A stretch of 64,000 nt of DNA from the NCBI GenBank assembly GCA_964016885.1, contig OZ024743.1, positions 240,374,001 through 240,438,000 on the forward strand, written 5' to 3'. The translations under genes were made by a program, and so were the position numbers. Below the pieces are notes generated by a model. That model saw only the letters and a program-made list of their open reading frames with translations, was not told where the DNA came from and searched no databases. Below, in pieces: positions 2,884-62,216 of the stretch (position 1 is its first letter; every line of letters begins with the position of its first letter). Origin of the DNA: Eledone cirrhosa. Its lineage: Eukaryota.

Positions 2884-3030
2884 CTGCTGCCTGTTCAAAT
2901 CTTGTAAATGTATTCACTCCATATAATGAAGATTTCCAGTGGTTTTGACATTTGTCAATAGACTGCCACAGAATCCATCTCATTTCCAGTGTGTCCATTT
3001 GTTCCAATGCACACGTTGAATGGCACTGAC
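2884..3030 (-). CDS. Avidin-like gene exon G (147 nt): C-terminal part of domain 2
   Basis: Acceptor ctttctctacttccag, donor GCAG|GTATGA, phase 1/1; encodes GQCHSTCALEQMDTLEMRWILWQSIDKCQNHWKSSLYGVNTFTRFEQAA. Confidence 0.92.
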
Positions 3031-6000
3031 CTGGAAGTAGAGAAAGTTTTAATTAGAACAAAAACAACATCTCTCTCTAGAATTCACATGCATTATCCTT
3101 ATTATATTATTCTGTTCATGAAATATTGTGTTTATGTGGATTAGATGGCCTATGAAATGCTGAAATATGCTTATTATATGGATTAGATAGCCTATTAAAT
3201 ATTGAAATATGCTTATTATGTGGATTAGATAGCCTATTAAATGTTGAAATATGCTTATTATGTGGTATATCAGAAAGACTGGTCTGAATACTTTCAAAAT
3301 TGTTTATTTACTGTATATACTCATATATAAGCCAAGAAATATGTGACAAAAAAAATCAATGGTAAAATGGGAGAGGGAGTCAACATATTTGAGGTCAATA
3401 TTTTGCCTATTTTCACCAACTTCAAATTCTACGTGAATAAAGGGCTAAAATATCTGGAGTGATTATTTTAGAATGAAACATTTTTGGGGGGCTTTTTTAC
3501 AACATCGTCATTTATGTTATTCATGTATTCCCTTGAAAATATTTCCAACAAATTTTTATAATTTGAACTTTTTAATACATAATACACACACGCCAACTCA
3601 CTTAATACTTTTTCTCTCAATCTTCTGTAAGATTAAAATCTTACTTCTGATTTGAATTATATTATTCGCACTCCTCACTCTGCCTCTCCACTCTCTTGCT
3701 TGATGTATCTCCCTCCCTATACAAAGTTTTCTTATTCAATCTCTCGCTTTCAATTACTCCCAGCATGTAAGTGGCCAGAAATAAACAAAAATTCAAGAAA
3801 CTTGTTGAAACTATAAAACAGATGGAATGATATAAAAGGATTATGTAGTGGAGTAGTGAAATAAAAACTAAACTCTAAATGACACTTAAAACATCAACAT
3901 TTTAAAACGTTATAAATATATTTTATACTCATGAGAATTTCAAAACAAACCATCTAAACATAATGTGTTGATTAGCTGCCACAGCTTATAAATGGGGTTT
4001 GGATTTTTTCCCATTTTTCAAACATAAAATAGAGGTTGGCTTATATTTGGATCGACTTAAATTCGAGTATATACAGTAATTCACTGTGCATCTGCTTACA
4101 CTTAGGCAAGTTAGAGCTCAGCTAAATCCAATAAATGTAACTGAGTTATCTCCCTTACACTTGACTCGTATTTGATCTTCGTCCATCTTTCGATTCTTAC
4201 AAATATTCGATACCGTTTCAACCAACCAAAGTAGTACACGTTGCTGTTTTTGTTTAACCACAGGTTAACTTTCATCCAGTAGCCCTATGATCAAAGATAT
4301 ACCAGTCGTTAACTTCCTTCACATCTCTAAGGCATTGCATCCAATATGTCCTTTCTTTTTCAGGAGGGTTGATATGGTTTTGGTGAAATTTGGTTACTAT
4401 TTCTAGCAGGTTAAACAACCATATAGACGTTTCTTTCTTGACTCTATAACTATTATTTGTTCATGTTGTCATCATTCAGCTCTTAGTCTGAATACTTTCT
4501 GCAGAAAATACACCACTAAAGGCACCTAAAGACCAGGTTGTAAAGTTAAACCTGGTCACAGATTAAGTCTAATTGGAATTTGTGCTGGTACAATTTTTAT
4601 CAACCTCGAAAGGATGAAAAGTTAAGTTGTCTTTGGTGGGTTTTGCACTCAGAGTGCAAAGAGCTTGAACAAACACTACAAAGCATTATATCAAACTTTG
4701 TAACAACTCTGCCCATTTGTGCCTATTTGATAACCTATATTCATTGCATAGCTTACCTTTACTTACTGTAATTAGCTTACCTGTATATATCATGAATATC
4801 TCTTTTGTATTTACTGTGAATAGTTCAGCTGTATTTATTGTGAATAGCTCATAAGTATTTACTGCATATAAATCACCTGTATTTAATATGTATAGCACCT
4901 GTATTTACTGTGTATAGCTCACCTGTATATACTATGATTAGCTCACCTACATTTACTGTGTATAACGCCTCTATTTATTGTGACAAACTCACCTGCATTT
5001 AAAGTGATTAGCTCACTTGTATTTTGTATGATTAACTTACCTACATTTAGTGTGATTATCTTACCTCTATTTAGTGTGATTATCTTACCTGCATTTAGTA
5101 TGATTATCTTACCTGCATTTAGTATGATTATCTTACCTGCATTTAGTATGATTATCTTACCTGCATTTAGTATGATTATCTTACCTGCATTTAGTGTGAT
5201 TATCTTACCTGCATTTAGTATGATTATCTTACCTGCATTTAGTATGATTATCTTACCTGCATTTAGTATGATTATCTTACCTGCATTTAGTATGATTATC
5301 TTACCTGCATTTAGTATGATTATCTTACCTGCATTTAGTGTGATTATCTTACCTGCATTTAGTGTGATTATCTTACCTGTATTTAGTGTGTTTATTTTAC
5401 TTGTATTTAGGGTCATTAACACACCTTTAATTAGTGTGTTTACTCACCTACAAATCCAGTTACTGATTCACCGTTTCTCCATACTACATGGAATCCAAAT
5501 GTTGAGTTTGGTTCATGGAAATTACTGATGCCGTGGACAAGGGAGTGGGTATGTCCTGCAGCTCCTCTATTTCGTTCCACAGCAGTACGGTACTCACCTA
5601 AAATACAAGACATACATATATCATCATCGTTTTTACATCAACTTTTCCATGCTGGCATGGGTTGGACAGGACTTTTTGAAGCAATGTTTTACAGCCAGAC
5701 AACCTTCCTGACGCTAACTCTTATAGTCACCTCTTATGATGTACAGGAATACTGTATACCTATTCTAAACTGGATATATATATATATATATAATCATCAT
5801 CATCACCATCATCGATTAACGTCTATCTTCCATGTGCTAGCATGGGTTAGACAGGTCCCATTTAGAGGCAAGTTGGGTTGGGTGACCACGTCTCGCTCAT
5901 ATAGGGGTGTTTCTGGCTGGTTTTCTATGGCTGGATGCCCTTTCTAACGCCAAATATATATATATAAATACATAGAGCAATGTCACTCATACATTCAGCC

Positions 6001-10322: not shown

Positions 10323-10375
<53 letters not shown>

Positions 10376-13300
10376 TACCACCCAGATTGAAGTATACAAT
10401 GCTGACTGGGGTAAAGAGTCCGTCTCCCTCGCTCTCTCTCCATAGTCCATCTAGACTGGCATATTGAGTCTACCTCTCCCTCTCCATACACCATGGCGTA
10501 TAGAATCTACCGCTGGTGAGATATACCATCCAAACGGGCCCAATCCGCCTATCCTTCTCCATTTCCTTTTAGTTTCATTGCCAACATTATATAAATTAAG
10601 TCAAATTTGTTGAATAAAGTATGAATTTACACCATTGAAAAAAAAAGAAAATAAGTTCACTTTCAAGTGATGTGTGGTTATTCCTACAAATACTGTAATG
10701 TCATGATTGTATACTAGAAATATTTCTTTATTTAAAAAAAAATGCACATACATCAACATCTAAACTGTAAGCTGCTCTTGTCTGTTGTACATCTGTAAAG
10801 GACTGTTGTTTTGCGAAATTTGACTGATACGCTTAGTGAATGTAGCGACTTGAGTTGATGTCCGTTCGTCAAATAGATTTTAATGGATAGTTATCGGACA
10901 AGAGTTGTTTCCCTTGATTCTAAACAGAAGTCGGTAAATGTTGTCATTATTAAGTGAACACACGCGCTCAGACACACATTTATGCACACTCGCCCATAGT
11001 TACATCTTTTAGTAAACACATACAGTCACATCTAGCATATTTCACACACACACTACAACAAATAGATTTTAAAGAAACAAACACAGTCATGCAAAAGCTC
11101 AACAGTATGATGTCTGTGTATCTGAAGGCAAGTAAGAAGGTAGGTAGGTAAGTAAGTACGTAGTTAGGTAGATAAGGCAGTGCTTCAATTTCAGCAGTGC
11201 ATAGCAACCAGCCCTGACAGTAAAGTGTTCTGGAAGTATGTTCACTCAAAGCAGAGGCTTCACTCTCTCTCCAGTTGGTCCTCTTCGCAATCCCCACACA
11301 AGCCAGGTTACTGATACCCCAAGGATGTTGTTACGTACCTGCTTATCAAATGTGGTGGGTACTTCCTTCTGCACCAGCTATCACGCTTCTTCCAATTCTG
11401 TCTGAACAACAGTGCTACTCCAGAACAGTGGAAAACTGCCAGTGTCATTCCTCTGTTCAAAAAGGGGGACCGCACATCACCTGTGAACTATCGTCCAGTC
11501 AGTCTTACTAGCTGCATTGCCAAACTGATGGAATCCTGTGTCAGAGAAACGCTTTGGAACTTCTAGAACTCTCACAGTCTTATCCTCGCAATTTGGATTT
11601 ATCCCTAACTCCAGCTGCTGTGATCAACTTATCGAGTTTCTTGAAGACATCACCCGGATCACTGATAGCAGCTCATGGGTCGATGTTGTTTACCTGGACT
11701 TTGCTAAAGCTTTCAATTCTTTGCCACACAAAAGACTTATAGCAAATCTCTCTGCAATGGGTGTGAAGGATGATCTTTTTAACTGGTTGAAGTCCTTCAT
11801 TCTCAGTCGAAGAGAGGTAGTCACGGTTCTAGGACAGCATATGAGATGTCATCTGGTGTACCACAGGGATCTGTTCTTGGACCCCTTTTATTTGAGGCGT
11901 ATATTAATGACATAGATGCCAACTTAAAGAATGCCACAGTACTGAAATATTGATGACATCAAGCTGTACCTTGAGATAAAAAGGACAGATCCTGATCATT
12001 ATAGATCTTGCCTGCAATCTGACCAGGACACAATGCAACAATGGATCATGGACTGGCAACTCAAGCTAGCTGTGGACAAGTGTACCACCATGCATTTTGG
12101 GAGTAAAAATCCAGCATCCTCATACTCCCTCCACAACACTAATATCAAGAAGTCTTTCTTGTGAACGTGACCCGGGCATTACTGTCAGCAGCAATTTGCG
12201 TTGGACGAATCACGTCTCTAAAATTGTCAAGAAAGCCGAGGGTGTCTTCGCATCACTCAGCAAGACTTTTGTCAGCCGCTCTCCAGGTATCTATTTAAAG
12301 CTGTATATAGCTATGGTGCGGCCACACTTAGAATTTGCATCACCAGTCTGGAACCCCTATCTTGCTCAGAACATTGACCTCCAGGAAACTGTTCAGAGAC
12401 GTGTAACCAAGCGCATACCCTCCATCAGACACCTACCATACTCTGAACGCCTTGCTCTTCTGGGCATGGATTCATTGAAGCTCCGACATCTGGCAACTGA
12501 CTTGGTAAACACCCACAAAATTACTAACCATCTTGCCAACAACAACCCTGAGTACCTTTTTGATTTCCATGTGTCTAACACACGTGGGCATGCCCACAAA
12601 GTCAGAAAACAGCACAGCTCCCATGACTTTCGGAAACATTTTTTCACGCTCAGAGTTGCTGAAGCATGGAACAAACTACCTGCATCAGTTATTAGCTGTC
12701 GAGACACTGCATCCTTTAAAACCTCCATGCTTCCTGAAATTCGCTAACACTACACCTAATATTCCCCCTCCATACACACGCACACATGTATATCATGACT
12801 CTTACACTATTCACTTCCCTGACATTTGTATATTATTCTATGTACTATAGATGCACCTTTGACGAGTTGTAGTGCACCTGAGCACTGTACACAATAATTT
12901 CATTATTATAAGTAAGTAGGTATATAAACAACTACATCATCGGATGCAAACAAAGTCGCAGGTTTTATATCAGAGTGACCTCCTAGAGAGATGTCTTAAT
13001 GAAGACTAGGAGTCTGTAGCTCTACAAAAAAAAAAAAAGCTCTATTGGATATTCATTGATTCTCCTGAGTTTCTCCACCCTTTCACGGGTTTTGTTCTAC
13101 TTTTTAGGTAAATGCATTTGATGTTCAGAGAGAGGGCTTGGCCCCGCGCAAAGCTTTTCATCTCTTAAAAAAACTTCAATACAGGCAACGCTTGATATGC
13201 GACATTTTTTGTGATGCATGGTATTGCAAGTCCTTAGCAGGACTAAAAAACGACGTCCGTGATGCTCATGCTTAAGTATCTCGAAATTGAGTTGCAGCCA

Positions 13301-16300
13301 TCATATAAACAACAACACAATCACATAGCAAACAAACAAATACACAATAACACACACAAAAACGAAGTTGAATCATCTAACACACATACATAGTTATGTG
13401 CTCTAGCAGCATAAACACTCATATTTCATGGAGACAGGTGACCTAGTGATAAGGGTGTTAGACTTATGACCATAATGTTGTGGGTTCAATTCCTGGGCTG
13501 GGTTGTGTATTTTGTTCTTGAGCAAAACACTTCATTTCCTGTTGCTCCAGTATACTCAGCTGAAAATGAGTGGACTGGCATCCTGTCCAGGGGGTGGGGG
13601 GCATTGTACTCTCAGTCGAAACCGGGATAAGCACTGACCTGATGAGCCTCCAGACTCGAGACAGACTTTAGACTTTTGACTAGGCAGTTACATCATCTAG
13701 AACACATACATACACATCAATTAACATACACATACATACACAGCTCAAGTTACAGTCACACAGTTACAACAACTAGAACAACAGAAAAAAACTTACACAC
13801 AGAAAAATGAAAACAAGAAACAAAAGAAACAAAAGAAAACAATAGATTGGGAAGACAACATCATCATCAGTAGCAGCACTGTATGGTGGGATGAGGAGAG
13901 AGGAATGGGAAGGATATTAGAAAAATGTCTTTTAGCATTTTTAATAATTGACCATTTCACCAGATGGTGGAACATAATAATTGATTCTTCTTTTGGCACA
14001 AGGCCAGCAATTATCCCAGTGCATTACATGTGCTTTATTTTATTGACCCATAAGGATGAAGGGCAAAGTTAACCTTGGCGGGATTTGAACTTAGACCGTA
14101 AAGGGACGTACCTCTATGCTGCAAAGCATGGCGTCCAACTCTCTACCGATACTGCCAATAATAATTGTTTCTACTTTTGGCACAAGGCCAGCAATTACCC
14201 AGTGTATTACTGGTACTTTATTTTATCAACTCCGTAAGGATGAAAGGCAAAGTTAACCTCGGCGGGATTTGAACTCAGATCGTAAAGGGACGTAACTACG
14301 CTGGAAAGCATGTCTGACCCTCTACCAATACTGCCAATTCACCCAATAATAATGGTTTCTGATTTAGGTACAAGGCCAACAATTTTGGGGTGGTGGGAAA
14401 AATTGTTTAAATCGACCCCAGTACATTACTGATGCTTTATTTTATCAACCATGTAAGGATGAAAGGCAAAGCTAACCTCCGTGGGATTTGAACTCTGAAC
14501 GTAAAGAGCCATAATAATAATAATAATGGTTTCTGATTTAGGCAGAAGGCCAACAATTTTTGGTGGGAGAGAAAGTTGATTAAATTCACCCCAGTTCATT
14601 ACTGGTACATTATTTTATCTACCCTGTAAGGATGAAAATCAAAGCTAACCTCCGTGGTATTTGAACTTTGAAAGTAATAATAATGGATTAGACACAAAGG
14701 TCAACAATTTGGGGGGAGGGGAAAGTTGATTAAATTGACACCAGTTCATTACTGGTACTTTATTTATCGACCCTGTAAGGATGAAAGGCAAAGCCAACCG
14801 TGGCATGATTTGAACTCAGAATGTAAATGGCAATAATAATAATAATAATAATAATAAAAATAATAAATAATGATAATTATTATGTAATAATAGTTGTTTA
14901 CCTTTGATCGTACCAGAGTCATCTAGTGTGAGTATGACCTCTGAACCAAGCTCATTGTACCAAGTTCCATCTAGTTTACACGGAGGTGTGGCTGGTTCTG
15001 AAACACAACAACATAACAGATGGTGGTGGATTGCTAGAATTGGTAGAATGTTGGATAAAATGCTTCACAGTATTTTGTAATATAATTAACTTTCTCATTG
15101 ATAAGTTGTTATTTGGAATATAACATAACCTTACATAAAATTATCATGGAAGGTTTTTAGATAAATATAAATACTTCAAAATATACAGTTTTGTATGGCA
15201 GAACTAGTGGTAGTTTCAGGGGGTTTTGATCGAAAGTATTAAGCTAGTGTTTGGAACATAACTTAATAAAGGTTCGTACATTAAATTATGGTGGAAGGTT
15301 TTTAGACAAATATAATCTATTTAGAATATACAATTTTGTTTGGTGTTTGGAACACAACAAAGGTTATTACATAAAATTATAATAGGTGTTTAGATGAATA
15401 TAAACAGTTTAAAATAAACAAATTTGTATCATAGAAACAGAAGCAATTTTAGATAGTTTGCTTTCAAAAGTGCTAGAGAAAGAAATCTCAAATTGAGAAA
15501 TATTCTGTGACCTTTGTGTCTGCCATAAAAACCATTAGGGACATATGTGAAGTGGTTACTTTTAATTTTTAGTCAGGGATAGCAGGGTTGCTCCCATAGC
15601 CCTTTACAGAGACTCTAAAACTTGTGGAAATGAGGATCATATATGGAGTGGGCATAACTGATTTAAAAATAAAATACAGACTTACTTCTTACAGTATAAA
15701 GTGGAGCCAACATTACTGATATTTAGTATCAAGTCAACCCTGATCATAATGTCCTTTTTTAAGATGTAATTTCAAGGAGATTTGGCTGTTATTTCTTATA
15801 GACTGAGTAATCATATATAAATTCCTTTGTCGATTCATAGGGCTGATGATGTAGAGGTGATAAGTATATGGCTAGTGGTGGGGATGGATTGGAATAAACA
15901 ATCTTGAGACTTTCATTCAGGACAAGATCAAAATCTATTTTCTATGTTACACTACATGGCCCTTAACTCAAAAAGTCACATTTGCCAACCACACTGAAAG
16001 GGGGTTACTTACTCCCTATCTTACAATATGTGGTCCCTGTACTCAACAACCCACATTTGTCAACCACATTGAACAGGGGCCACTTACTATCTTACACTAA
16101 GTGTCCCACTCAACTCAACAAGCCACATTTGTCAACCACACTGAACAGGGGCCACTTACTCATTGCTGCCGCTGGACGGTGTTGTTGTTGGCGTTCTTGA
16201 CCACTGGACAACACGTGAGGTTTAGCTTTGGCCAAATTCATATAGAGTCCATTTGAATCATGTTTCTTCCATCGAGTGTCAGTTTTCTCGTGAAGCAGTG

Positions 16301-19300
16301 GTGCCCTTGATTCTGCAATAAGAACCAGGTTATTCTGCATAGAGAAACTGACAACACAGAAATTTATATATAAAGAAAAAACATAAAATACACCTCAGAA
16401 TTTTAGCAATTTGGTGGAAGAGGATCAGCTGACTAAATAAACTTCAGAACATGACCGGTACTTTATTTTATCAACCTAGACCAGAATGATAGAAGGCAAA
16501 GTGGGATCTGAACTAAGAATATAAAGAGCCAAAGCAAAGACTGTAAGACATTTTTCTCAACAATCTACTCAATTCTGCCTATCCAATGTCCTTAATAATC
16601 ATTTCTAATAAAGGCACAAGGCCCAACATTTTAAGGAGGTGTATAGTTAATTAAGTTGACCTCAATTTTTGACTGATACTATATTATATCAATCTTGAAA
16701 GGATGAAAGGCAAATTTGATCACAGTGGGATTCAACCCTGCTTTTCATTCTCCTGGAATTGATCAAAATAAAGTACCGGTCAAGTAGCAGAAGGTTGAGT
16801 TAATTGAATAACCCACCCACAAAATCTGTGGACATGTGTCTCTCGTGGAAATAATAACAATAATAAGTTCTTTTACTGGCCACTAGGGCCCAAGAAATTG
16901 GGGATAATACAAGGACAAATACAACACAAAGTGTGGTTTATATTGAGTTAAGGAAAGGAGATGTCACCGAAGAGAAAACATTAGGAATAACAATAATAGA
17001 AACGGTAATAACAATAGACAACATTAACAAGTGTTCACAATGACCAGTCTACCAATGGTGGGTGACTACAGTTTAGGGGAATGCCAAAAAGAAACCCAGC
17101 ACAAAACTCCAGATTACTCTGTTGCCTCATAGACATAGAAAGTGAACTATCCTGGTTTCTTTCCTCCTGCTTAGAAAAGCATAGTCAATCTAATCAATCT
17201 CACCACTCTCATATATATTTTATAAAACACACAAGAAGGTAGCACCTCCCACTCTACCATCACCTTCCTCCTCAAAGAATGACTGTGTAGAGACACCATT
17301 GTTGATTTATAATAAGCCAATGTAGATAATAGTGATTTTGTTGTTTAGCCACAGGTAAGTCCTTATTAAGAAAGCCTATGATCAAAGATGGTTCAGTCAT
17401 GGCTACCCCATGTCTTTTTTAAAGGGATAATGTAGATACAGCTACATTATCAGTTTTTAATGATGGTAGAGTGTAGTTTTAGGGTTAGATGGGTATCATT
17501 TCTAGCAGGTTATATCCTCTGCCATTCTTCCAACTCATGTCTGATTCTCCAGTATTGATGTCATCATCATCATCTTCGTTTAATATCCATCTTCCACGCT
17601 AGCATGGGTTAGACCTCTGTATTGTTTTTAAAGTAACTTACCTGGTAAATTTGATAGTTTCACTAATGGTTTCATAGATTTGTCATTTGAAAAAGTAAAA
17701 TTCTGGAAGAGAAAAAATATTCTTTAGTACAGGTGTATATATTGTATAGTCAGGAGTACATACACATGTATATAAAAATGATACACATAAGCATATACAT
17801 AGATTGCATATTGTGCATATGTATGTCCATCTGGTTTTATTATTTTATAAATTTTTGCCGGTTTCTAACATAGAAACAAGGCTCTTTCATTGGAATTTAG
17901 ACATTATCAACTAGGTAAATACATATGTATGTCTGTACATGTTTGTGTGTATGTGTGCCATCAACTTGGTAAATACATGTATGTTTGTACATGTTCGTGT
18001 GTATGTGTGAAGGTATCGATGTTATTGTATATGTGGATCTGTATGTTTTGAATTATATATGCATCTATGTATGTGTACATATGTGTGTGTGTTTATGAAT
18101 GTATGTATATCACTATTTACATATAATTTGTATATATTCACATGTATATGCACGTATCCTCGTCATCAATGTTTTGACATCCACTAATTCAGTGCTTGTA
18201 TAGGTTGAATAAGATTGCTTGTGACAGCTTGTCTATGAGTGGGTACCCTTCCTGACATCAAGACATACCTTATTTCTTAAAGTCTGCTATACAGCAATAA
18301 ACATTCAGTGAATAGCTATGCTGCATAACATAAACAATGTCAACACTCCCTTTTATAGACAAGGACAATATATACATATGTATATATACAGGGTGTCTCC
18401 AAACAAATATATACACCATTCTATGTACAAGTAATCAAAATATGTATACATTTTTTTAGGACACCCTGTATATATATCATCATCATCAGTGTTTAACATT
18501 TATTTTCCCTGCTTGCAAGAGTTAGATGGTTTGTACATTATATGGCATGTTGGGAACTGTTTCTGGCTTGGTTTCAATGGCTGGATGCCCTTCCCATCAG
18601 CAGCCACATTACAATATGGACTGGATGCATTTTATCATAACACCAAAACGACCATCCAACATGATGGACTAGGTTCTTTTTGTCATGTCACCAGCACAAC
18701 CACTTTACTGAGTGGGCTGGGTGCTTTTTTGTCATGTGAGTATGTGTGTATGCATGTGTGTGTTGAAGTGTTCTATAACATTCCTAGATAATACACAAAA
18801 ATAAACAAAGAAAAAATCAGGATCCATATATTGTTGTATACATACTAATGGTCTTTCTGGGACGTGTGTATTTTTTTCTTTTCGAGGACCAGGTTTCTGT
18901 TCGTAGCGTGTGAAAATATCTCGGCCTATTCTGTTTGCCTTCCATTTCTCATCACAGCTGCTTGTCTGAGAGTGTAACAACCATGTAGTCAAAAGTTTCT
19001 CGTGTCCTCCTAGACACACAACACACTGACCTGAAACAGACAAAACTCTACATACACGTGCCTGTCTAAGTGAGCCTCTCTATATAGACATTGTATACAT
19101 GCATACATATATGTGAGTCCCGGGTTCAATTGGGGGTAACCAGAGTTAGTAAGGTACTCAATACATTAGTAGATTGTAAACATCATGTTTAATATAGAAA
19201 TGGCTTCTACAGGACTAGAACTGTTTCATTCAAAAGAAATCATCATTCTTTTGAATGAAACAGTTTTAGTCCTGTAGAAGCCATTTCTATATTAAACATG

Positions 19301-29097: not shown

Positions 29098-29156
<59 letters not shown>

Positions 29157-32315: not shown

Positions 32316-33388
32316 CGTGTTTTGCAATGGGTCACTTTGTGGCTCAATGAAAAGTTAATAGATTAAATAATCAGAGCTATATATCATAAAACATGTCTAT
32401 AGAATCACCAGATAAAATATATACCATTTCCTCTCCCAAGGAGAGGTATATATTTTATCTGGTGATTCTATAGACATGTTTTATGATATATATATATATA
32501 TTGACATACACATATACATTCTACCTCCATGATTTTTCCACAATCCTTGACTATTATATATATATATATATGTACTATACTGAATCATTTTATCCAGGTG
32601 GACAAGGAACGACTGTCTTACCTGTCCAAATTGTAGTTGACCGGCCGTGGTTCCAGACCACTGAAAACCCAAAGGAGGCACCTGGAGATTTTGGTGCAGT
32701 ACCTGTAATGGAAATACAATTTATGTTAGTTGAACATTCTGCAACTGAAAGTACTAACACTATCTTGGTTGAAATCATAAGGGAATGTCTCTAACTGCTA
32801 GAAATAGCAGCTACATCTCTCTCAAATTACACCAAAAACATCTTAGAAGGGAAGTATTGATGGAGAAAGTGCTCCTAGGTTATCTACATATAAGGAAAAG
32901 ACTTATAGTAGATTTTGTTACAGACTTATAGTAGATTTGGATGCAGTTTTACAGCCTGCATGCATGGCATGCCTTGGGTATTTTAGAGAGAGAGAGAGAG
33001 AAAGAGGAGGGGGGCGAAATGGGAGCTTGAGAAAATCAGCTCAATTCATTGTGTTTCGCTTGTTGTTTATAGATGTAGAGAAACCTGGCTTTTGTTTTCT
33101 GGCAATTAAAGCTAGCTCTAGCCCTATTAACACTGACACAGCACAATGCCATACACGTGTGCACAACACCAAGTACAGATAACTTGGGTACTATGTGCAC
33201 TGAAACAAACATACCACCTACATACTATACACCAAATTACATATATGCACTTATGAGGTGAGACAATCCACTTCATGTCTATTCCTCTTACTTATACTCT
33301 GTCCCACCTCATCTTCTCTCCCTCCTTTTCTTGCTTATATAACACTGCCTTGAACCTCATGTAACTAAAATGACTCAACTAAACCTGT

Positions 33389-35971: not shown

Positions 35972-36017
<46 letters not shown>

Positions 36018-36337: not shown

Positions 36338-36373
<36 letters not shown>

Positions 36374-54300: not shown

Positions 54301-57300
54301 GGAACATCCCGCTCTTTAGTGTTAGTGGGCGACTGGAACAGGATCTTAGATGCCCGCTGGGACTGTGTGGGATTAGTGGATAGGGGAGGAGGGTATAAAA
54401 GCCTCACAAACCTGGAAACTAAACGCGTCGTTAACAGCGTGCAAAGCTTACAGAGACTAGATTAGCGAATTAGTTAAGTGAGCGTTGACAGGGACCATCG
54501 TCAACAACAAATGGTGGTTTGCCTGAAAAGAACGATTAGAATAGAGTCCATTAGGTTTAGTAAAGCATTAGTAACAGAGAAAAATAGAGCAGAAGGAAAT
54601 CTAGTTAGCAATTTGGCTCTCGACCAATTTTTCAATTCTAAGCACGAAGGCTGCGTTGTCAGAGCTAGGGTGCGTACTCTCAGACACGAGAAGATGAAAG
54701 CTGTTCAATGGGCCCAGGTGGCGGAGGCGCGTCGTGGCAACAAAACCATGATCCGGTGTTTGGAGAATCACGACGGGTGCATGATACTCAATCTCGGGAA
54801 GACGTGTGCAGATTTTCAGCAGCACTTTGCTCAGCTGTTCGGGGGCAGTGGCAGGCCGCATCGCAGAATGGACTTCAGTGCCTACCTCGATAAACTGCTG
54901 CGGCTCTCGGCCACTGAGGCGGAGTGTTGCGTAAGACCGATAACAGTTGCTGAAGTACGGGAAGCAATGACTAACTGCACAATGGGTAAATCGCCTGGTT
55001 TGGATGGTCTGCCATACAAATTTTACATACATATACCAGACTTGTTTGAAGACCTCTTGACGGATGTCTACTGCAACAGGCAGCAGAATGGGATAATTCC
55101 CAGCTCTGTGATCCGAGGAGCAGTGGCACTGCTAAGAAAGAATCAGAACAAGGGGGATAACATTTCAGGCCCATAACTCTACTAAACACAGACTTCAAGA
55201 TTTTGGCTAAGGTGCTAGCAAAGAGGTTGGCGCTTGTCGTTGGTGGTCTGGTGGAAGAGGCGGAAACATGCACCCTTCCAAACAGATCCATCCACGACAA
55301 CCTCCACCTCATACGATACATCGTAGAGAGGGTAGCTAGCGAACCTGGCACGGGTGGGTCTTTAATCAATTTAGATCGGTCAAAAGCTTTCGATAGGGTC
55401 TACCATTGTTATCTGGCGGCAGTCCTAAGAGCAGCTGGCTTTGAGCCTGTCTTCAGGGGCTGGATTGCTGCCATGCACAGCAACATCTGCTCTGTGGTGA
55501 GAGGGAATGGTCACCTTTTGGAACCGTTCAACATCATGCACTCGATCCGCCAAGGATGTCCCCTCTCGTCCCTCTTGTACGTATTGACTCTCGAGCCATT
55601 ACTGCACAAACTGGAGACGTTGAGGGGGATCCCGCGCGAACTAGGATGCGGAAGAACTGTATCAGCATATGCAGATGACATCACCGTAGTGGTGTCAAAC
55701 GCCAAACACACTGAGGCGATCGGCACCACACTAAGAAGATACGAGGTAGTGACAGGAGCAATGATCAACCAGGAAAAATAAGTAGGCCTGCACCTGGAGA
55801 GGCCGGTCCATGCCATCCAACAGCGTCGTCGGGCACTGGATGGACGGACCGGTTAAATTGCTAGGGGTCTGATTCGGTCCGAACCTCCAAACGCACAAAA
55901 ACTGGGAGGAGGTCACGAGCAAAGTGGCTTCTCTCACCCAGAAATGGGCTGAGAGGAAGCTATCCCTGAAAGGTCGAGCGGAGGTGGTAAATGCATACAT
56001 CGCGTCCGTCATCTGCCACAGCCCGACTGTCGAGCCTTGTCCTAAGCCTCGCCTAACTGCACTGGAGCGTTTGCTCTTTCGCATTTTGTGGAAGGGACGT
56101 GCTCCGATGGTGAGGCGGTCCATCTGCTGTCAACTCCCGCTACGCGGAGGGCTGGGCATGCCGTGGCTGATGATGTGCTCAGGCTACGGCATCTCCACCT
56201 CTTCCTCGATGGTGATCAGGTGTGGTCGCCCTTTGCTAGACACATGTTTCCCCAGCTTGTCTTCTTGGTGGAGCTGCAGTCCTGGGTCAAGCGAAGATCG
56301 AGAGGAAGCGTTTGGAGACTGGAATGTCTTCATGTGCTTACAGACCTCGACTAGTGGAGCAATACAATCGCTGGAAACTCCACCTTGGCGTTCTATAGAG
56401 GGTTAGTGGAGGGAAAGAGCAATGATATCCTTGGGGAGACTCTAGGCATCGATGAAAACCAACTAGCCAATCTCTTCGGGAGAACTTCCGGGCCGGGGCC
56501 TATGGACAACTTCCAGAGATCTCTGGTCTGGCAGTGCTACCGAGAAGCCTTGCCAGTTCGGGATAAACTCTACAGGCATGGAAGTGCCGTCAGCCGGGCA
56601 TGTCCAAGATGCGCGCAGGGCGACGAAACCGTCCTGCATGCACTCATCCAGTGTCCGAGCATTGCTGACTTGTGGGTTTATGCCGAACACCTGCTGTCAC
56701 GTGTAGAACAGATCCGGCTATCAGCTGAAATCCATCGTGAAGATTGCCCTGCCGTCTTCCTTTAGCCGAGAAGGGCAAGCAGTTTTTATCTGCCGGTGGC
56801 CATGGTAAAAGAGACTGTATGGTGGACACGTCTGAAAGGGTTGAAGATGGGTACTTTACTCTTCAGTTATGCCCTCATTAACTTATTCAGGTTTCACCTG
56901 AAAAGGAAAATCAGGGTAGAGAGTGAAGTGCTGACTTCCAGCCAGTTTGTTGAAAGGTGGGTGAGAGAGGCAAGAATGGCCTGTGTGAATGGGTCTACCC
57001 TGAGCGTGTGCCTGTAGCATTGTAGGAGGAAAACTGGAAGAGGGCATTTGCCCTAGCGGTCAGGGTAACATGGCTTTTCTTATGGGCTTTCTCCACGAGC
57101 AACCCCCGGAGGTTTCCCCCCTATTGGGGAATTTTTCATTGCTTCACTTTTTGTCACATACTCTATTTTTGTTTTTTTTTACACGCAGAAATGCCCATTT
57201 GTATTGTCCTGTGTTGTCCTTAATGTTATACTTTGTGTCAACCTATGTGGTTAATAAAGACAGCATTATTATTATTATTATTATTATCATAATTATTATT

Positions 57301-60300
57301 ATATTAAAGGGCAGTGGATTGGCTGTATTGATAGAGGGTTGGACGCCATGCTTTGACACATAGAGTTACGGCCCTTGCCATTCTGAGTTCAAATCCCGCC
57401 GAGGTTAACTTTGCCTTTCATCCTCGCGGAGTCGATAAAATAAAGTACCAGTAATACACTGGGTAATTGTTGGCCTTGTGCCAAAAGTAGAAACAACTAT
57501 TATTATTATTGTTGTTGTTGTTCCTTACAAGGTTGATAAAATAAAGCATCAGTAATGCGCTGGGGTCAATTTAATCAACTTACGCCTCCCCCACAATTGT
57601 TGGCCTTGTGCTTAAATCAGAAACTATTATTATTATTATTGTTGTTGTCTCACAAAGATTTACATATGAAATTATTGCAAAATAGCTAATGCAGAATTGT
57701 GTAAGAGGAGAGAAGGTAGTAAAATGATTCTTCTAAGTAATACAATGAAAGTATAAATTTTAAAAATAAAGATACATATATAAATAAAATAAAGAATAAT
57801 AATTTGTTTATTTGTTAAATATGAAGATAAGTTGCTTTTGAGGGTGATACAGAAATAGGGTAAAATATTGTAGAATTAATAAAAAGGTAGGAAGGGATAT
57901 CACCATAAGTGAAATTTGCTATAAAGTTAATTACACATACAATTATGAAGTTTTATTTTTTGCAGGAAAAAATGCAATAGCCACCAAATAATGAGGATAA
58001 ATAGCATTTACATTACTCTATAGTTACTATTGTATTTTCACAGTAAAGCCTTTATCTTACATAATTATCTCACATAATATCGAATCTATGAGATTTTGAT
58101 ATTATTTTGAGAATAATACCTTAATGTGGGTATGAGTGGCCAGTTACAGCCAGTTTGAACAGAAAGGGGTGATAAAATTCTGGCCAGTTTAAATGCTAAA
58201 GGGTTAAAGATAGGATATAAAAAATATTTAAAAATTCCCAAAATGCCTTATGCCCCACTCACTCCTACAGAAATTTCTTGTGATCTTCAGTGGTGGGGAA
58301 ACTCCTTTGGAGAGCACCATCTTGAGGTCAGTGGATGATACCCACTTTGAGAAGGCTTGCCATACTGTATAACCATTCAACCCATGTTGGCTTGCAAAAA
58401 GTTAAAATGAAGAAGATTATCATATAATCCCATACTCCTGCAGAACTTTCCATAACAGATCAATTGAATGTGGTCATATGCCTTTTCAATATCTTTGAAA
58501 CAAGCATCTACCTCTTGGCAATATTCCCATGATTTCTCAAAGATTTGCCACAGTGTGAATATTTGGTCAACTGGGCTACTTCCAGGGCAAAAACAGCACT
58601 GTTCATTAGTTAACTTGTACTCAACAATAATAATAATAACAATAATAATAATAATGAAATTATCGTGTACAGTGCTCAGGTGCACTACAACTGATCAAAG
58701 GTGCATGTATAGTACATAGAATAATGTACAAATGTCAGGAAAATGAACAGTGTATGAATCATGAAATACATGTGTGTGTGTTTATGGAGGGCAACATCAG
58801 GTGCAGTGTTGGCGAATTTCAGAAATAACCCTACATCTCTTCATCAGACACTTAGCATAGTCTTTATTGGGAAGGTTTAACAAGATCCTTCTAAAATTGA
58901 AGCGATCTCTCATCTCCCTTTTCTTGAAAAGTGGGATTAACAGTCCCGATTGCCATTGCTTAGTTGTCTTTTCAGACATCCAAGCTACCCAGCACACACG
59001 AATCAGCCAGAGAATACCTTCTCTATTTAAGGCTTATAACATCTCAGGTCAAATTTCAAAATGAAGAAGAAAAAGATGATGATGATAACAACAACAACAA
59101 CAACTCTTCTACCCCAACTCAAAATAACACCATTATCTCAAGCCAACATGGGAATAAGATGCTTCCACATAGTCTCTCAACCTGAAAAAATTAGTAGCTC
59201 AAACACTCTTCAACAACAACCTATTGTTATAACTCCTAATGTTCTGTACCATATGAACCCCCTTAACAAGACCTTCTTGAAAATTACAAAACAGTTCTAA
59301 GTCTACATCATATTAAATATCAAAGTCTTTACTCTGATACTATAAATTTCTACACTAAGTAAATACACTATATACATTTGAATTAACAAATCACATAAAA
59401 CCACATTAGCGAAACGTACTAAACAGCACTATGACTACATCACATTAAATATTAAAGTCTTTAGTCTAATATTGCAAAGTTTCACAACAATTTGACCACT
59501 AGTAAAAATACCATGTATACGTATGTACATTATATTATAGAAATGACTTCTACAGGACTAGAACTGTTGCATTTAAATGAAACAGTTCTAGTCTTGTAGA
59601 AGTCATTTCTATAATAAAATAAATATACATATACTCTACCAACATATTATATATATAAAGAAATAAGAACACAAACACAGGGATGCAAAAGTATATATAT
59701 ATATACTTTTGGAGGCACATGGCTTAGTGGTTAGAGCATTGGCCTTGCAATCGAAAGATTGTGAGTTCAATTCTCAGACCGGGTGATGTGTTGTTTCCTT
59801 GAGCAAGACACTTTATTTCACATTGCTCCAGTTTACTCAGCTGTAGAAATGAGATGATAAGGACTGGGGGTCCCTATCATTCCACTGCAAAGTGGTCGTG
59901 GAGGTGCCACAGCAAAAAAGCACCCAGCACTCACTGTAAATGAGGTTGGTGTTAGGAAGGGCATCCAGCTGTAGAAATCAAGCCAGCATCAGTTCCCGTC
60001 CCACCCTTGAAAGCAGGGAAAAAGCGGACGTAAAATGAAATGAATGAATGAAATGAATATATATATATAAAATTTGAAGTTTGAAAGTCATAACAATGCA
60101 TGGACTAATGCGTTTCGATGTACCTAGACTAGTCCTTCACTATTTTCCTCTGAAGAAGAGGTTTTATCTCAAAATATCAGGACAGACAAATAAAAAGGGT
60201 ACACATAACATCTTACTTCATCTTATTTTCTTGTTCGTCCATTTCGCATTGTTGTGGCTTTCAAACTTCAAATTTTATATACCATACATATTGCTTCAAG

Positions 60301-60338
60301 CAAACTACAACTTACTTCCTCCAATATATATGATGATG

Positions 60339-60369
<31 letters not shown>

Positions 60370-60734: not shown

Positions 60735-60765
<31 letters not shown>

Positions 60766-60905
60766 GCACCTATAAATCTACATGCGTATGTATGTTTATG
60801 TGTGTGCATGTATATATATCCATATATATATATATATATATATGCACCTATAAATCTACATGCATATGTATGTTTATGTGTGTGCATGTATATATATATA
60901 TATCC

Positions 60906-60960
<55 letters not shown>

Positions 60961-60973
60961 CATGCACACACAC

Positions 60974-61005
<32 letters not shown>

Positions 61006-62216
61006 CTGTTATTTGAATGTCTTCAATTATTTTGGTACACAGGTTGTATATGTATAAACATGTTGAAACAATGTTAGACAATCACAAAGGAAATGTTTTA
61101 ACCAAAGCTGTCTTCCAGAACATTCCAGCTTTTTTTATATTTTATTAAAAAAAAAAAAGAATACGAAATAACATTGACACTAAAGTTAGTATAGTAACTT
61201 AAAATAGCATCAAATACAGAGCAAAATAGAATTTGGAAACAAGCTAATAAATTTTGAAATAACAAAATAAATATTTAACCCTTTTGATATGAAACCACCT
61301 GAAACAAATCCTCATTGCATGATACAAAACTGAATAGTGTATATATTTATCTAAAAATCTTCCATCATAATTCTATGTATGGATGTGTAATGTTAGTAAG
61401 CCTGAAAGGTGAAACATCAATGAACTGTGAGAAAAGCTGAACATAAGAAGAGAGAAGGCTGTGCTGGTATGGACATGTTTTCTGTATGAAGAATAACAGC
61501 TACATAAAACAGTGCAGAATACTGAAAGTTGATGGTAACTGTGAAAGAGGTAAACCCAGGAAAACTTGGGATGAATGTGGTAACGGCTGACCTAATGAAG
61601 TTGAACTCAGAAAATAGATGACACATGATCAAGTTGATTGGAAATATGCCATACTACAGAAGACTCACTTTCTCACAGAAGTATGATGAGACATAAGCAG
61701 AGAGATGTAAACACTTTTTTAGGCCTCCAAGCTCCTTCACTCACTATCTATCCCCACCTTGTCTTCCTTCTAATTCACATCTCTTAGTCCTCCTTCCCAA
61801 CTCAACCCATGCCAACATGGAAAGATGGACAAACTTTCACAGGATACTATTAGATGTTACTCATTCACACTCTCACTTCAAGACTACTACAGCTACTGTT
61901 GCTCACTCTCTCCATCACTTCATGACTACATCCATGACCCAACATTTACTCCCCCTCCACGTGCAATGAAATGAAATGAAATGAAAATATGAAAAACAAT
62001 TAAAAGAAAAGAGAGGTTTATAAGTCTACTTACCTATAACTATAGAATGGGAATGGCCAGCGTCACCTGAATGAACTTCCACACTCGTCCGGTATTCTCC
62101 TTCCAAAGTACCATATTTCTGGCTTGATATTATTAGTTGAGAACCTAATTGATTATACCATGCTCCTTGTAATGTGGCACAGTTTTCTATTTGCTTACCA
62201 TACGCTGAGCATCTAC
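2884..62216 (-). CDS. Partial multi-exon gene encoding a tandem two-domain avidin/streptavidin-family protein (7 exons in window; start and stop exons not found in window)
   Basis: Spliced translation: xRCSAYGKQIENCATLQGAWYNQLGSQLIISSQKYGTLEGEYRTSVEVHSGDAGHSHSIVIGTAPKSPGASFGFSVVWNHGRSTTIWTGQCVVCLGGHEKLLTTWLLHSQTSSCDEKWKANRIGRDIFTRYEQKPGPRKEKNTHVPERPLNNLVLIAESRAPLLHEKTDTRWKKHDSNGLYMNLAKAKPHVLSSGQERQQQHRPAAAMKPATPPCKLDGTWYNELGSEVILTLDDSGTIKGEYRTAVERNRGAAGHTHSLVHGISNFHEPNSTFGFHVVWRNGESVTGFVGQCHSTCALEQMDTLEMRWILWQSIDKCQNHWKSSLYGVNTFTRFEQAA(G). Avidin motifs GxWYNxLGS, GxYxTxV, FGFxVxW, GQC, WxL, WK and GxN/DxFTR each occur twice; all junctions are GT-AG and in phase. Confidence 0.92.
3133..3265. 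repeat. ~42-bp tandem repeat, about 3 copies
   Basis: Unit tatgtggattagatagcctattaaatgttgaaatatgcttat. Confidence 0.8.
3311..4076. mobile_element. Non-autonomous Tc1/mariner/pogo-type MITE
   Basis: TA-flanked TIRs ctgtatatactcatatataagcc ... gacttaaattcgagtatatacag. Confidence 0.65.
4740..5447. repeat. 24-bp minisatellite (~29 units) carrying 5' splice-site consensus on the gene strand
   Basis: Unit tgattatcttacctgcatttagta = minus TACTAAATGCAG|GTAAGATAATCA; begins at the exon F donor. Confidence 0.92.
5448..5597 (-). CDS. Avidin-like gene exon F (150 nt): middle of domain 2
   Basis: Acceptor tcttgtattttag, donor GTAG|GTGAGT, phase 1/1; encodes GEYRTAVERNRGAAGHTHSLVHGISNFHEPNSTFGFHVVWRNGESVTGFV. 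Confidence 0.92.
6420..6526. repeat. ~29-bp tandem repeat, about 4 copies
   Basis: Unit atgacataccaacccccaaattaaatat. Confidence 0.75.
6660..7900 (+). mobile_element. Degraded Penelope-like retroelement (RT thumb plus GIY-YIG)
   Basis: Fragments CPLNQQC...IYEAKV...TYVGMS...F..NHKTSF; many frameshifts. Confidence 0.65.
8230..10030 (-). mobile_element. RTE-type LINE 3' fragment (degraded RT)
   Basis: GVYQGSALNPLLF, GKWPC...WMHKRC and KGRLYDACV fragments; same family as 62470-64000. Confidence 0.8.
11175..12910 (+). mobile_element. CR1/L2-like LINE, 5'-truncated with internal deletion
   Basis: QFGF, VVYLDFAKAF, RPHLEFASPVWNPY, TRGH and FFTLRV motifs; (ATT)n tail. Confidence 0.9.
13428..13680 (+). 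mobile_element. tRNA-derived SINE with central cttgagcaaaacact domain
   Basis: A/B boxes (ctagtgataagg, gggttcaattcc); related copy at 49950-50232 on minus. Confidence 0.65.
13975..14830 (-). mobile_element. Cluster of about 5 head-to-tail SINE copies just downstream of exon E
   Basis: Repeated ggatgaaaggcaaagttaacctc...atttgaactc units separated by (AAT)n. Confidence 0.85.
14902..14997 (-). CDS. Avidin-like gene exon E (96 nt): start of avidin domain 2
   Basis: Acceptor tgttgtgtttcag, donor AAAG|GTAAAC, phase 1/1; encodes KPATPPCKLDGTWYNELGSEVILTLDDSGTIK. Confidence 0.92.
15967..16159. repeat. ~70-bp tandem repeat (3 copies) duplicating the exon D donor
   Basis: Unit contains cacatttgtcaaccacactgaacaggggccacttact (minus: A|GTAAGTGGCCCC). 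Confidence 0.8.
16160..16334 (-). CDS. Avidin-like gene exon D (175 nt): interdomain linker
   Basis: Acceptor tttctctatgcag, donor ATGA|GTAAGT, phase 0/1. Supplies exactly the phase change needed between exons C and E; open frame NNLVLIAESRAPLLHEKTDTRWKKH...HRPAAAM. No homology motif to confirm it. Confidence 0.75.
18389..18468. mobile_element. Short Tc1/mariner MITE
   Basis: TIRs cagggtgtctcc ... taggacaccctg in TA context; same TIR as 31681-32243. Confidence 0.65.
18846..19030 (-). CDS. Avidin-like gene exon C (185 nt): C-terminal part of domain 1 and start of linker
   Basis: Acceptor ttttgtctgtttcag, donor TTA|GTATGT, phase 1/0; encodes GQCVVCLGGHEKLLTTWLLHSQTSSCDEKWKANRIGRDIFTRYEQKPGPRKEKNTHVPERPL. 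Confidence 0.9.
19182..19302. repeat. Near-perfect fold-back, ~57-bp arms, probably Penelope pLTR-derived
   Basis: atcatgtttaatatagaaatggcttctacaggactag... and its reverse complement; relatives at 34768-34878 and 59535-59613. Confidence 0.8.
19785..19970 (-). mobile_element. Young SINE copy abutting CR1 tail
   Basis: Reverse complement of the 2385-2570 family. Confidence 0.85.
19975..23010 (-). mobile_element. CR1/L2-like LINE with nearly complete ORF2 (APE endonuclease plus RT)
   Basis: ORF 21813-22823 has LNARSL, VTETW, VYRPP, GDFN and SDH; ORF 20086-21963 has YRPVSLTS, GVPQGSVLGP and YADD; (ATT)n tail. Confidence 0.95.
23482..23935 (+). mobile_element. CR1/L2-like 3' fragment
   Basis: LATDLVNTHK...TRGH...AWNKLP plus the same 3' UTR and ATT tail. 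Confidence 0.88.
24120..24603. mobile_element. RTE-like LINE fragment with internal inversion, flanked by (TA)n
   Basis: Minus NQNGFREGRST piece joined at ~24374 to plus LRLAGHAHRHPE...GRGRP...DRDRWR piece. Confidence 0.7.
24820..25980 (-). mobile_element. RTE-type LINE fragment
   Basis: QFGF, FVDLEKAFDRVP, LLYADD and Cys-rich GKWPC motifs. Confidence 0.88.
26432..26770 (+). mobile_element. tRNA-derived SINE with RTE-derived 3' tail
   Basis: tggcttagtagttaaagc...gagttcaattctc...ccttgagcaagacact, then the RTE 3' UTR (ttggtgttaggaagggcatccagctgtagaaa); near-identical to 59711-60057. Confidence 0.85.
28167..28679 (-). mobile_element. Non-autonomous Helitron
   Basis: Minus strand starts A|TCTATAT.. 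and ends with hairpin ACCCAG-GCAAAG-CTGGGT followed by CTAG|T; no TSD. Confidence 0.65.
29808..30379. mobile_element. hAT (Charlie-like) MITE
   Basis: TIRs cagatgtccccaa ... ttggggatccctg; degenerate 8-bp TSD ctctaatg/ctttagtg; subterminal gggccaca/gcggccc. Confidence 0.75.
31681..32243. mobile_element. Tc1/mariner MITE carrying two nested SINE copies (31826-32168, minus)
   Basis: TIRs ccgggtgtctccaaaaatgt ... acattttttgggacaccctg; the truncated SINE is flanked by catgatttaaataatt repeats. Confidence 0.75.
32381..32489. repeat. Perfect ~45-bp-arm hairpin ~130 nt downstream of exon B
   Basis: atatcataaaacatgtctatagaatcaccagataaaatatatacc / ggtatatattttatctggtgattctatagacatgttttatgatat. Confidence 0.88.
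32622..32702 (-). CDS. Avidin-like gene exon B (81 nt): middle of domain 1
   Basis: Acceptor gtatttccattacag, donor ACAG|GTAAGA, phase 1/1; encodes GTAPKSPGASFGFSVVWNHGRSTTIWT (cf. avidin FGFTVNW...STTVFT). Confidence 0.92.
33970..34065 (+). ncRNA. Type I hammerhead ribozyme (Penelope/retrozyme-like)
   Basis: Stem I accagt/acaggt; core CTGAGGA; stem II GTAGA..TCTGC extended by ATTGA/TCAAT; GAAA; palindromic stem III ACGCGCGT; cleavage triplet GTA; AATAAA follows. Confidence 0.75.
34255..34575. repeat. Compound minisatellite: gaagtggaactaactgttgtg plus variable (TA)n, 8 copies
   Basis: Direct inspection. Confidence 0.9.
37997..38745. repeat. Degenerate (CAC/CAA)n low-complexity tract
   Basis: Produces spurious poly-His/Thr/Val ORFs. 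Confidence 0.85.
40880..41750 (-). mobile_element. CR1/L2-like 3' fragment
   Basis: WQLKLAVDKC...TRGH...AWNKLP; same family as 19975-23010. Confidence 0.9.
41873..42093. mobile_element. piggyBac-like MITE
   Basis: ttaa-ccctttagcattta ... taaatgctaaaggg-tt; related inverted copy ~58020-58207. Confidence 0.6.
43628..45634 (+). pseudogene. hAT transposase pseudogene
   Basis: BED-like CVCLIC...KRHYETRH, SIAIDETTD, HCIIHQE, LAFLVDIT and FGSTYACEQLFS; disrupted by a SINE and frameshifts. Confidence 0.92.
44476..44659 (+). mobile_element. Young SINE inserted in the transposase CxxH motif
   Basis: 16-bp TSD attattcatcaagaag. Confidence 0.9.
47340..47790. repeat. 42-bp tandem array (~11 units) derived from the RTE 3' UTR
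   Basis: Unit accactttacagtgtggactgggtgctttttgtcgtgacacctac; similar units at 18600-18740, 39270-39490 and 62630-62730. Confidence 0.85.
49180..49600. repeat. (GTT/GTG/GTA)n low-complexity tract
   Basis: Gives the spurious poly-Val ORF 49081-49728. Confidence 0.85.
51240..51420 (+). mobile_element. Small remnant of an RLE-type (R4/Dong-like) LINE C-terminus
   Basis: IPIIGAAGYIP-like and ISGTLKICKTF fragments. Confidence 0.4.
51826..52009 (+). mobile_element. Young SINE with TSD
   Basis: TSD attaattagataaataaag. Confidence 0.9.
52080..52378. repeat. ~52-bp tandem repeat, about 6 copies
   Basis: Unit ggtagactcaattcatcacccagtttaaccttaccacctggcccttgagt. Confidence 0.8.
52905..57290 (+). mobile_element. 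Tx1/L1-clade LINE (partial ORF1 plus degraded ORF2)
   Basis: ORF1 zinc knuckle CHGCGDKTHLKAFC; APE SINTHGL/SISETR; RT KSPGLDGL, RQGCPLS, YADD; C-terminal CPRC...HALIQC; AATAAA plus (ATT)n tail. Confidence 0.92.
57312..57500 (+). mobile_element. Young SINE copy after the Tx1 tail
   Basis: Same family as 2385-2570. Confidence 0.85.
58440..59060 (-). mobile_element. Old RTE-like RT fragment interrupted by a CR1 3' end (58625-58823)
   Basis: DQIFTL..IFEKSWEY...DIEKAYD and WQSGLLIPLFKK pieces on either side of the CR1 tail. Confidence 0.65.
59711..60057 (+). mobile_element. tRNA-derived SINE with RTE tail
   Basis: Near-identical to 26432-26770. Confidence 0.85.
61360..61670 (+). mobile_element. 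Degraded RTE C-terminal fragment
   Basis: RRLCWYGHV...RGKPRKTWDE. Confidence 0.7.
62034..62216 (-). CDS. Avidin-like gene exon A (183 nt): probable end of signal peptide plus N-terminal half of avidin domain 1
   Basis: Acceptor tttcttccttgattccag, donor ATAG|GTAAGT, phase 1/1; encodes RCSAYGKQIENCATLQGAWYNQLGS...GEYRTSVEVHSGDAGHSHSIVIG. Confidence 0.92.

Follow-up and report, generated by a model that had tools for sequence, protein, structure and literature searches.

The window, the whole 64,000-nucleotide stretch of Eledone cirrhosa DNA analysed here (positions count from its first letter), is AT-rich, full of repeats and part of a 3.0-Gb assembly. Its minus strand carries eight of the ten exons of a two-domain avidin gene, from 62216 to 2884; exons 1 and 10 fall outside. 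The complete gene spans ~151 kb and encodes 424 aa with a single terminal stop, in the order signal peptide, avidin domain 1 (W79/D118, avidin numbering), linker, avidin domain 2 (F79/N118) and hydrophobic tail. Each of the nine introns has GT-AG ends and keeps the phase, and no stop interrupts the frame once the exons are joined. The exons are as follows.

Exon 1, G000:C4:240525221-240525299, 89 kb past the window's right end: signal peptide, 79 coding nt, located by tblastn
Exon 2, 62034..62216, minus strand: end of the signal peptide and first half of domain 1 (C4, N12, L14, S16, Y33, T35, V37)
Exon 3, 32622..32702, minus strand: domain 1 strands 5-6, with W70, S75, T77 and W79
Exon 4, 18846..19030, minus strand: domain 1 C83, C86, W97, L99, C106, W110, I115, R117 and D118
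Exon 5, 17642..17702, minus strand: 61-nt linker exon, phase 0 to 1, sole candidate of the splice scan
Exon 6, 16160..16312, minus strand: 153-nt cassette exon, phase 1 to 1, taken from spliced contig X4 record 26
Exon 7, 14902..14997, minus strand: start of domain 2 (C4, N12, L14, S16)
Exon 8, 5448..5597, minus strand: domain 2 Y33, T35, V37, W70, S75, T77 and F79
Exon 9, 2884..3030, minus strand: domain 2 C83, the C86 equivalent, W97, L99, C106, W110, Y115, V117 and N118
Exon 10, G000:C4:240373769-240373908 (L008), immediately beyond the window's left end: GPRK motif, a run of small residues, hydrophobic tail and stop

Exon 1 is identical to the orthologue P0002 at 25 of 27 residues and has a phase-1 GT donor (tblastn); no signal-peptide exon was found within 40 kb upstream, and it was located instead at 89 kb. 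Exon 2 is 87% identical to the closest proteins, from Octopus and Argonauta, and exon 10 is 74% identical to the P0001 tail. Exon 4 continues past D118 into a GPRK tail motif and then the start of the linker. Exon 5 is 80-85% identical to the linkers of orthologues, and its omission puts domain 1 and domain 2 out of frame. Exon 6 extends the linker from 46 to 97 residues and occurs in two of the seven orthologues (P0001 and P0003; not in P0002 or P0004-P0007). Exon 8 holds one N-glycosylation sequon. A genome search with the Pfam Avidin profile (PF01382) gave three matches from 11 candidates, all on the minus strand within the window; three exons score above the curated cut-off, and P0002 reaches 214 bits over two stretches. 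By profile, predicted fold and pocket, the two-domain protein is an avidin.

The remaining features of the window are largely repetitive; the LINE-type retrotransposon fragments, which lie in introns, were called by eye from endonuclease- and reverse transcriptase-like frames.

20089-22898, minus strand: LINE-type fragment
11952-12759, 40931-41757, 55161-56403 and 62781-63998: further LINE-type fragments
43565-44494, plus strand: 310-codon open frame, which we take to resemble a DNA-transposon-derived zinc-finger protein
2384-2574, 14160-14312, 19784-19936, 31824-32168, 44472-44662, 51822-52012 and 57309-57499: copies of a SINE-like family of ~150-190 nt, in both orientations and at very high read depth
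4872-5514: 24-nt tandem array
Around 47340-47790: 48-nt repeats

Both avidin domains lie in one polypeptide, the basis across the exon 4-exon 5 junction being orthologues and length arithmetic. Orthologues P0001-P0007 hold both domains in a single protein and match every exon; the annotations for O. sinensis, O. vulgaris, O. bimaculoides and Argonauta each give one protein with two domains, and two Logan-derived relatives carry both domains within a 387-aa ORF on contigs of ~1.7-2 kb. Runs X1-X3 yielded unspliced contigs and X4 alone a spliced one. In its record 26 (1855 nt), positions 684-836 are the cassette exon and 935-1222 exons of domain 2; the 683 nt that precede the cassette agree in length with exon 1 (79 nt), exons 2-5 (510 nt) and a leader of ~94 nt. 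Two tandem genes had been considered on the grounds that exons 4 and 7 are out of phase; this was rejected in view of the 61-nt exon and the orthologues.

A preliminary description of the window had proposed that a single chain contains two avidin domains, that each keeps its biotin pocket, and that domain 1 is streptavidin-like and domain 2 avidin-like at key positions. All the pocket residues that it named and the inter-subunit W110 are present in both domains, spread over several minus-strand exons; besides the codons given below, each domain has L14, S16, T35, V37, S75, T77 and L99.

Domain 1 codons, minus strand: N12 62154, Y33 62094, W70 32655, W79 32628-32626, W97 18983, W110 18944, D118 18920-18918
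Domain 2 codons, minus strand: N12 14956, Y33 5592, W70 5481, F79 5454-5452, W97 2977, W110 2938, N118 2914-2912

W79 (TIWTGQC) and D118 in domain 1, and F79 (TGFVGQC) and N118 in domain 2, are thus borne out codon by codon, with an intron interrupting each motif (TIWTG/QC and TGFVG/QC). In an alignment to PDB avidin and streptavidin chains, made with P0002, domain 1 W79/D118 coincide with avidin F79/N118 and streptavidin W92/D128; the domain 2 numbering was carried over through the domain alignment. Both domains have the canonical residue at all 10 core positions of the pocket. Two domains per chain, with both pockets intact by sequence, are thereby supported.

Avidin F72 and S73, described for loop 5-6 (PMC3811995, excerpt), are absent from both domains, which have H and G (domain 1) or N and G (domain 2) in their place. 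A GPR...TH.P motif is also conserved behind each barrel, with GPR following domain 1 in 34 of 53 chains and domain 2 in 46 of 53. The motif could block a pocket, by analogy with bradavidin, whose tail is an intrinsic ligand that lowers biotin affinity (PMC3344845, excerpt). One alternative is that the pockets look intact yet do not act on free biotin: the tails would fill them, or the protein would bind another ligand or serve adhesion. Core pocket losses among the relatives (32/406 in domain 1 vs 11/518 in domain 2) favour this reading, which is nevertheless very improbable, given core positions that are canonical in both Eledone domains and near-invariant in domain 2 of the family. Domain 1 W110 is lost in P0020, P0044, P0049, P0050, P0056, P0040 and P0071, where domain 2 is canonical; these losses suggest repeated drift to fewer or weaker sites.

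The meaning of positions 79 and 118 was assessed across the family. From 207 proteins gathered and the window's gene model, 279 domains were aligned; P0001 (an isoform) and P0005 (a second model from one species) were left out of the counts, and P0006 and P0007 were counted as cephalopod since they group with named cuttlefish and octopus rows. Among the 113 of 130 single-domain relatives that have both positions, 84 are W/D, 13 F/N, 10 W/N, 1 F/D and 5 other, so W/D is not diagnostic of a streptavidin type. Within the two-domain family, W79 occurs in all 45 non-cephalopod domain 1 rows. At position 79 of domain 2, F is found in 7/7 cephalopod rows, whereas the non-cephalopod rows have W in 54/56 and F in 2/56; at position 118, non-cephalopod domain 2 is evenly divided between D (25/55) and N (25/55). 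The commonest combinations among the 42 non-cephalopod chains are W/D in both domains (18) and W/D followed by W/N (14). W/D is, by these alignments, the family default, whereas the F79/N118 of domain 2 in cephalopods is derived.

The contrast within the Eledone protein is common to the cephalopod orthologues (6/7 chains; in the seventh, P0008, the N-terminus is mispredicted), so this part of the preliminary description stands; the labels "streptavidin-like" and "avidin-like", and the weight given to them, do not. Domain 1 has avidin's C4 and C83 and is 38-41% identical to avidin chains vs 35-37% to streptavidin chains, which argues against a streptavidin type. Domain 2 does have F79 and N118, and in structural alignment is 36% identical to avidin chains and 30% to streptavidin chains, but F72/S73 are replaced by N and G. 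The fish avidin zebavidin itself has W78 and D117, and such substitutions are called common within avidins (PMC3811995, excerpt). Chicken BBP-A, with F80/N119, releases biotin ~100-fold faster than avidin, at a rate similar to streptavidin (PMC1831776, excerpt); the two positions hence do not set avidin- or streptavidin-like kinetics. Affinity effects of D128N or W92 were not found in the literature searched, and the accessible part of PMC6394990 has no passage on these residues. The pocket contrast at 79/118 is ordinary variation within the avidin family. In cephalopod domain 2, F79/N118 may be a retuning of one site that shifts affinity somewhat, with no switch of protein type, and some affinity difference between the two sites is plausible, the domains being identical at 53 of 127 positions.

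Could the tandem nevertheless exist for the sake of two differing sites, with residues 79/118 making one of them streptavidin-like and the other avidin-like? Retention of the pattern in 6/7 cephalopod chains, the co-occurrence of F79 with N118 among the single-domain relatives (13 F/N vs 1 F/D), which suggests a coupled change, and predicted domain pI values of 7.9 vs 5.9 speak for it. However, the pattern is found in 1/42 non-cephalopod two-domain chains and so cannot explain why the tandem exists; position 118 of domain 2 flips between D and N at least six times on the tree; and BBP-A and zebavidin uncouple the residues from the labels. This explanation is improbable, and the two differing positions alone would have little significance.

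The gene is best seen as a member of an ancient, apparently undescribed two-domain avidin family, probably GPI-anchored, as judged from sequence. With P0002 as query, a protein search yielded 68 proteins out of 2067 candidates. The two-domain members with a species name belong to cephalopods, annelids, an octocoral, corals and sea anemones (e.g., Nematostella, Actinia, Desmophyllum, Porites, Xenia, Owenia, Paralvinella and, added separately, Ridgeia), and cephalopods share the layout signal-avidin-avidin-tail with annelids, corals and anemones. In a maximum-likelihood tree, computed by a quick method, unrooted and weakly resolved with 157 domain rows on 130 columns, one branch (SH-aLRT 99) separates 63 domain 2 rows from 28 domain 1 rows, which fits a single duplication before the cnidarian-bilaterian divergence. 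The closest deuterostome relatives among the proteins found (P0063, P0065 and P0066) have a single domain. Horizontal transfer of domain 1 from Streptomyces was considered and rejected: domain 1 contains introns, and in the tree it clusters next to domain 2 and relatives from animals (SH-aLRT 94, unstarred). Public annotations call the family proteins uncharacterized or Avidin. An account of natural two-domain animal avidins was not found in the literature searched, a weak absence, as the search reached few subscription journals.

Other tandem avidins were encountered along the way. A second, separate family comprises P0090, P0093, P0112, P0115 and P0162, the P0090 cluster coming from Argiope, Araneus and Larinioides; its domain 2 lacks most pocket residues, W110 included, and its domain 1 is largely intact, which makes this spider-type tandem a candidate natural half-valent avidin. 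P0141 (337 aa) has two avidin domains, both W/D and without C86/C106, and falls outside the animal tandem family in the tree, as a third independent tandem. Argonauta P0074 (536 aa) has two avidin domains, both F79/N118 and without C86/C106, each preceded by a further region without a domain assignment. An exon cluster that resembles it, apparently in at least two copies, lies on the same contig as the window and 31 Mb away (G000:C4:271815252-271867804, L031-L036); it is not among the Pfam Avidin search matches.

The exon 10 product consists of the GPRK motif, small residues and ~13 hydrophobic residues up to the stop. A signal peptide, a small-residue region and a terminal hydrophobic stretch are the usual signature of GPI anchoring, and these features (signal peptide, small-residue cleavage region, hydrophobic end, no cytoplasmic tail) are present here. 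A C-terminal hydrophobic stretch occurs in 54 of the 62 family proteins whose tail is long enough, and 52 of the 54 end within 15 residues of it; by a slightly different test, a hydrophobic C-terminus is found in 50/65 family members vs 5/130 single-domain relatives. In the Owenia protein the tail is longer and resembles a transmembrane segment with a cytoplasmic end. Signal peptide and tail together, by hydropathy and by eye, make it likely that the protein is GPI-anchored at the cell surface.

An anchored avidin might act as an uptake receptor, in the manner of GPI-anchored vitamin receptors, by binding biotin that is dilute in seawater or gut contents, then freeing it after endocytosis. The signal peptide and GPI-type tail are kept across cnidarians and bilaterians; loss of F72/S73 could, we infer, lower affinity enough for release; and the folate receptor offers an analogy. 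However, W110 and the ureido-ring residues are intact, and avidins that keep them release biotin very slowly. Uptake is unlikely, and we prefer the reading described below.

How the two barrels are arranged was approached through P0002, an orthologue 89% identical to the Eledone protein. Its AlphaFold model, built on a 55-row alignment (mean pLDDT 78.5, pTM 0.73), consists of two eight-stranded barrels joined by a linker of low confidence, and matches zebavidin with Z 12.1 and rmsd 1.6 over 119 residues. Foldseek and VIA-align rank engineered single-chain dimeric streptavidin (scdSav), covering both domains, at the top (TM 0.8 by target): on scdSav 6s50 the model superposes over 230 residues with rmsd 2.1 and Z 27.9 (single subunits give Z of about 12 or less), an overlay that does not by itself show which interface is matched. 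The packing of the modelled barrels may reflect a memory of avidin tetramers on the part of AlphaFold. The confidently modelled assembly is the two-barrel unit of one chain; a prediction of the two-domain homodimer, run without an alignment (score 0.03, mark 0.32), weighs neither way.

Besides avidin's C4 and C83, each domain bears C86 and C106. In the model these sit at opposite ends of the 11-residue strand 7 and are therefore unlikely to pair inside one barrel. In avidin, I106 is described at the 1-4 interface (PMC1831776, excerpt). Across the 52 chains with all four positions, domain 2 C106 is lost in five, all of which miss domain 1 C86 (5/5), domain 2 C86 is lost in six, all of which miss domain 1 C106 (6/6), and loss of 86 and 106 within the same domain is seen in 0/52, raw counts in which kin are counted repeatedly and for which a Fisher p is overstated. 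On the tree, the co-losses reduce to three independent events, with three unpaired losses (P0052, P0020 and the mis-modelled P0042). A phylogenetic sign test of the co-loss was not significant (median p 0.5 and 1), with two independent pairs in each test, too few to reach significance. The spider-type tandems retain only domain 1 C86 and domain 2 C106 (5/5). D86C and I106C have reportedly been engineered into avidin as an inter-subunit bridge, which we regard as a lead; a paper on engineered 86/106 cysteines was not found in the literature searched, which covered few subscription journals.

Alternatively, the chain may be a precursor: cleavage of its linker would give an avidin of two subunits, or shedding from the membrane would free a soluble protein that binds biotin. 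A furin-type R-x-K/R-R site is present in 6 of 53 linkers of two-domain relatives (P0025, P0035, P0043, P0045, P0047 and P0054, whose barrels may be cut apart), the cassette exon of the long cephalopod isoform contains a KK pair, and the linker is modelled with low confidence. Yet 47/53 linkers, that of Eledone cirrhosa included, have no furin site, and cross-domain disulfides would hold the pieces together, so that the picture would be little changed; such processing is a quite improbable account of the protein, somewhat more so than a tandem made for two differing sites.

The consistent asymmetry between the domains sits, by sequence comparison, at interface positions 115 and 117, outside the pocket. 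Over 53 chains, position 115 is I in 51 of domain 1 and Y or F in 50 of domain 2, and position 117 is R or K in 39 of domain 1 and E or D in 31 of domain 2; position 94 is mostly L in domain 1 and E in domain 2. The avidin 1-3 interface is formed by residues 96, 115 and 117 (Niskanen et al., PMC1082904, excerpt). Opposite charges at 117 suggest that domain 1 of one chain meets domain 2 of the other, in which case W110 would be swapped between like domains. Cephalopods break the R/E pair, with R in domain 1 and V, I or M in domain 2.

The reading that we favour, with somewhat better than even confidence, is a natural GPI-anchored dual-chain avidin, its barrels pairing with each other, that is predicted to trap surface biotin. 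Domain 1 and domain 2 of one chain would pair as an avidin structural dimer (the 1-4 interface). Two reciprocal disulfides, each between a C86 and the C106 in the partner domain, would lock the pair, and domain 1 would then remain attached to domain 2 and its anchor after any cleavage of the linker. Two chains would assemble into a four-site pseudo-tetramer, where W110 of a neighbour completes every site and where I vs Y/F at 115 and R/K vs E/D at 117 would fix how the domains face each other at the dimer-dimer interface. Egg-white avidin probably withholds biotin from microbes. The protein would similarly bind biotin at the surface of an epithelium, and its most likely role there is to keep the vitamin from microbes; vitamin scavenging is the alternative role for such capture. 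A fuller version is tentative and falls somewhat short of even odds: a dual-chain avidin pre-dating the cnidarian-bilaterian split that serves as a GPI-anchored biotin receptor, locked by C86-C106, with 115/117 fixing its topology, domain 2 of cephalopods converged on avian F79/N118, and two affinities.

To our knowledge, characterised avidins are soluble one-domain proteins. A membrane-anchored one would be a new setting for the question of what avidins do in animals; a 2026 zebrafish paper reportedly finds avidin dispensable, to go by its title, and Nematostella carries the gene, making a knockout possible. In the designed proteins dcAvd and scdSav, subunits were fused to break symmetry, and introduced cysteines were needed to control assembly. 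Natural two-barrel chains that date back to early animals would show how evolution has dealt with linker, disulfide lock and topology. If the proposal is true, they also provide a scaffold that is ready for use and whose two biotin sites can be mutated independently.

The protein shares the eight-stranded barrel, C4-C83, the pocket, W110 and the signal peptide with vertebrate avidins (chicken avidin, xenavidin, zebavidin, BBP-A and AVRs; PF01382). By contrast, the latter are soluble one-domain homotetramers, whereas here there are two domains per chain, C86/C106, no F72/S73 and a hydrophobic tail. With streptavidin it shares the W92/D128 equivalents (domain 1) and a WYNQLGS start, but streptavidin has Y where both Eledone domains have C83. 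Bradavidin likewise has a W/D pocket (W75, D107) and a conserved extension after the barrel (PMC3344845, excerpt); it is bacterial and one-domain, while the present protein is animal, two-domain and has a GPR tail. A survey of bacterial avidins reports protease fusions, with "tandem" absent from its accessible part (PMC8033661), and "tandem", "domains" and "GPI" are absent from that of a fish avidin survey (PMC13425791). Chicken yolk BBP-I was proposed to be a multi-repeat natural avidin, a pseudotetramer, and no gene for it was found in chicken (PMC1082904, excerpt); no connection emerged between BBP-I and the present family, which is marked by two repeats and a membrane tail.

The closest parallels are engineered. 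In the dual-chain avidin dcAvd (PDB 2c4i), two avidin units per chain were meant to give two kinds of site (PMC3105096, excerpt). The units of dcAvd are circularly permuted, whereas the natural protein has them in normal order, which makes scdSav (PDB 6s4q, 6s50) the closer analogue: its two subunits are likewise unpermuted and connected by a linker, with the same domain arrangement as predicted here. The scdSav linker has 26 aa (PMC7411666, excerpt) vs ~30-37 aa in most cnidarian members. scdSav is artificial and soluble, and its topology is set by an introduced H127C (PMC7411666, excerpt); in the natural family, divergence at 115/117 and native cysteines would do this instead.
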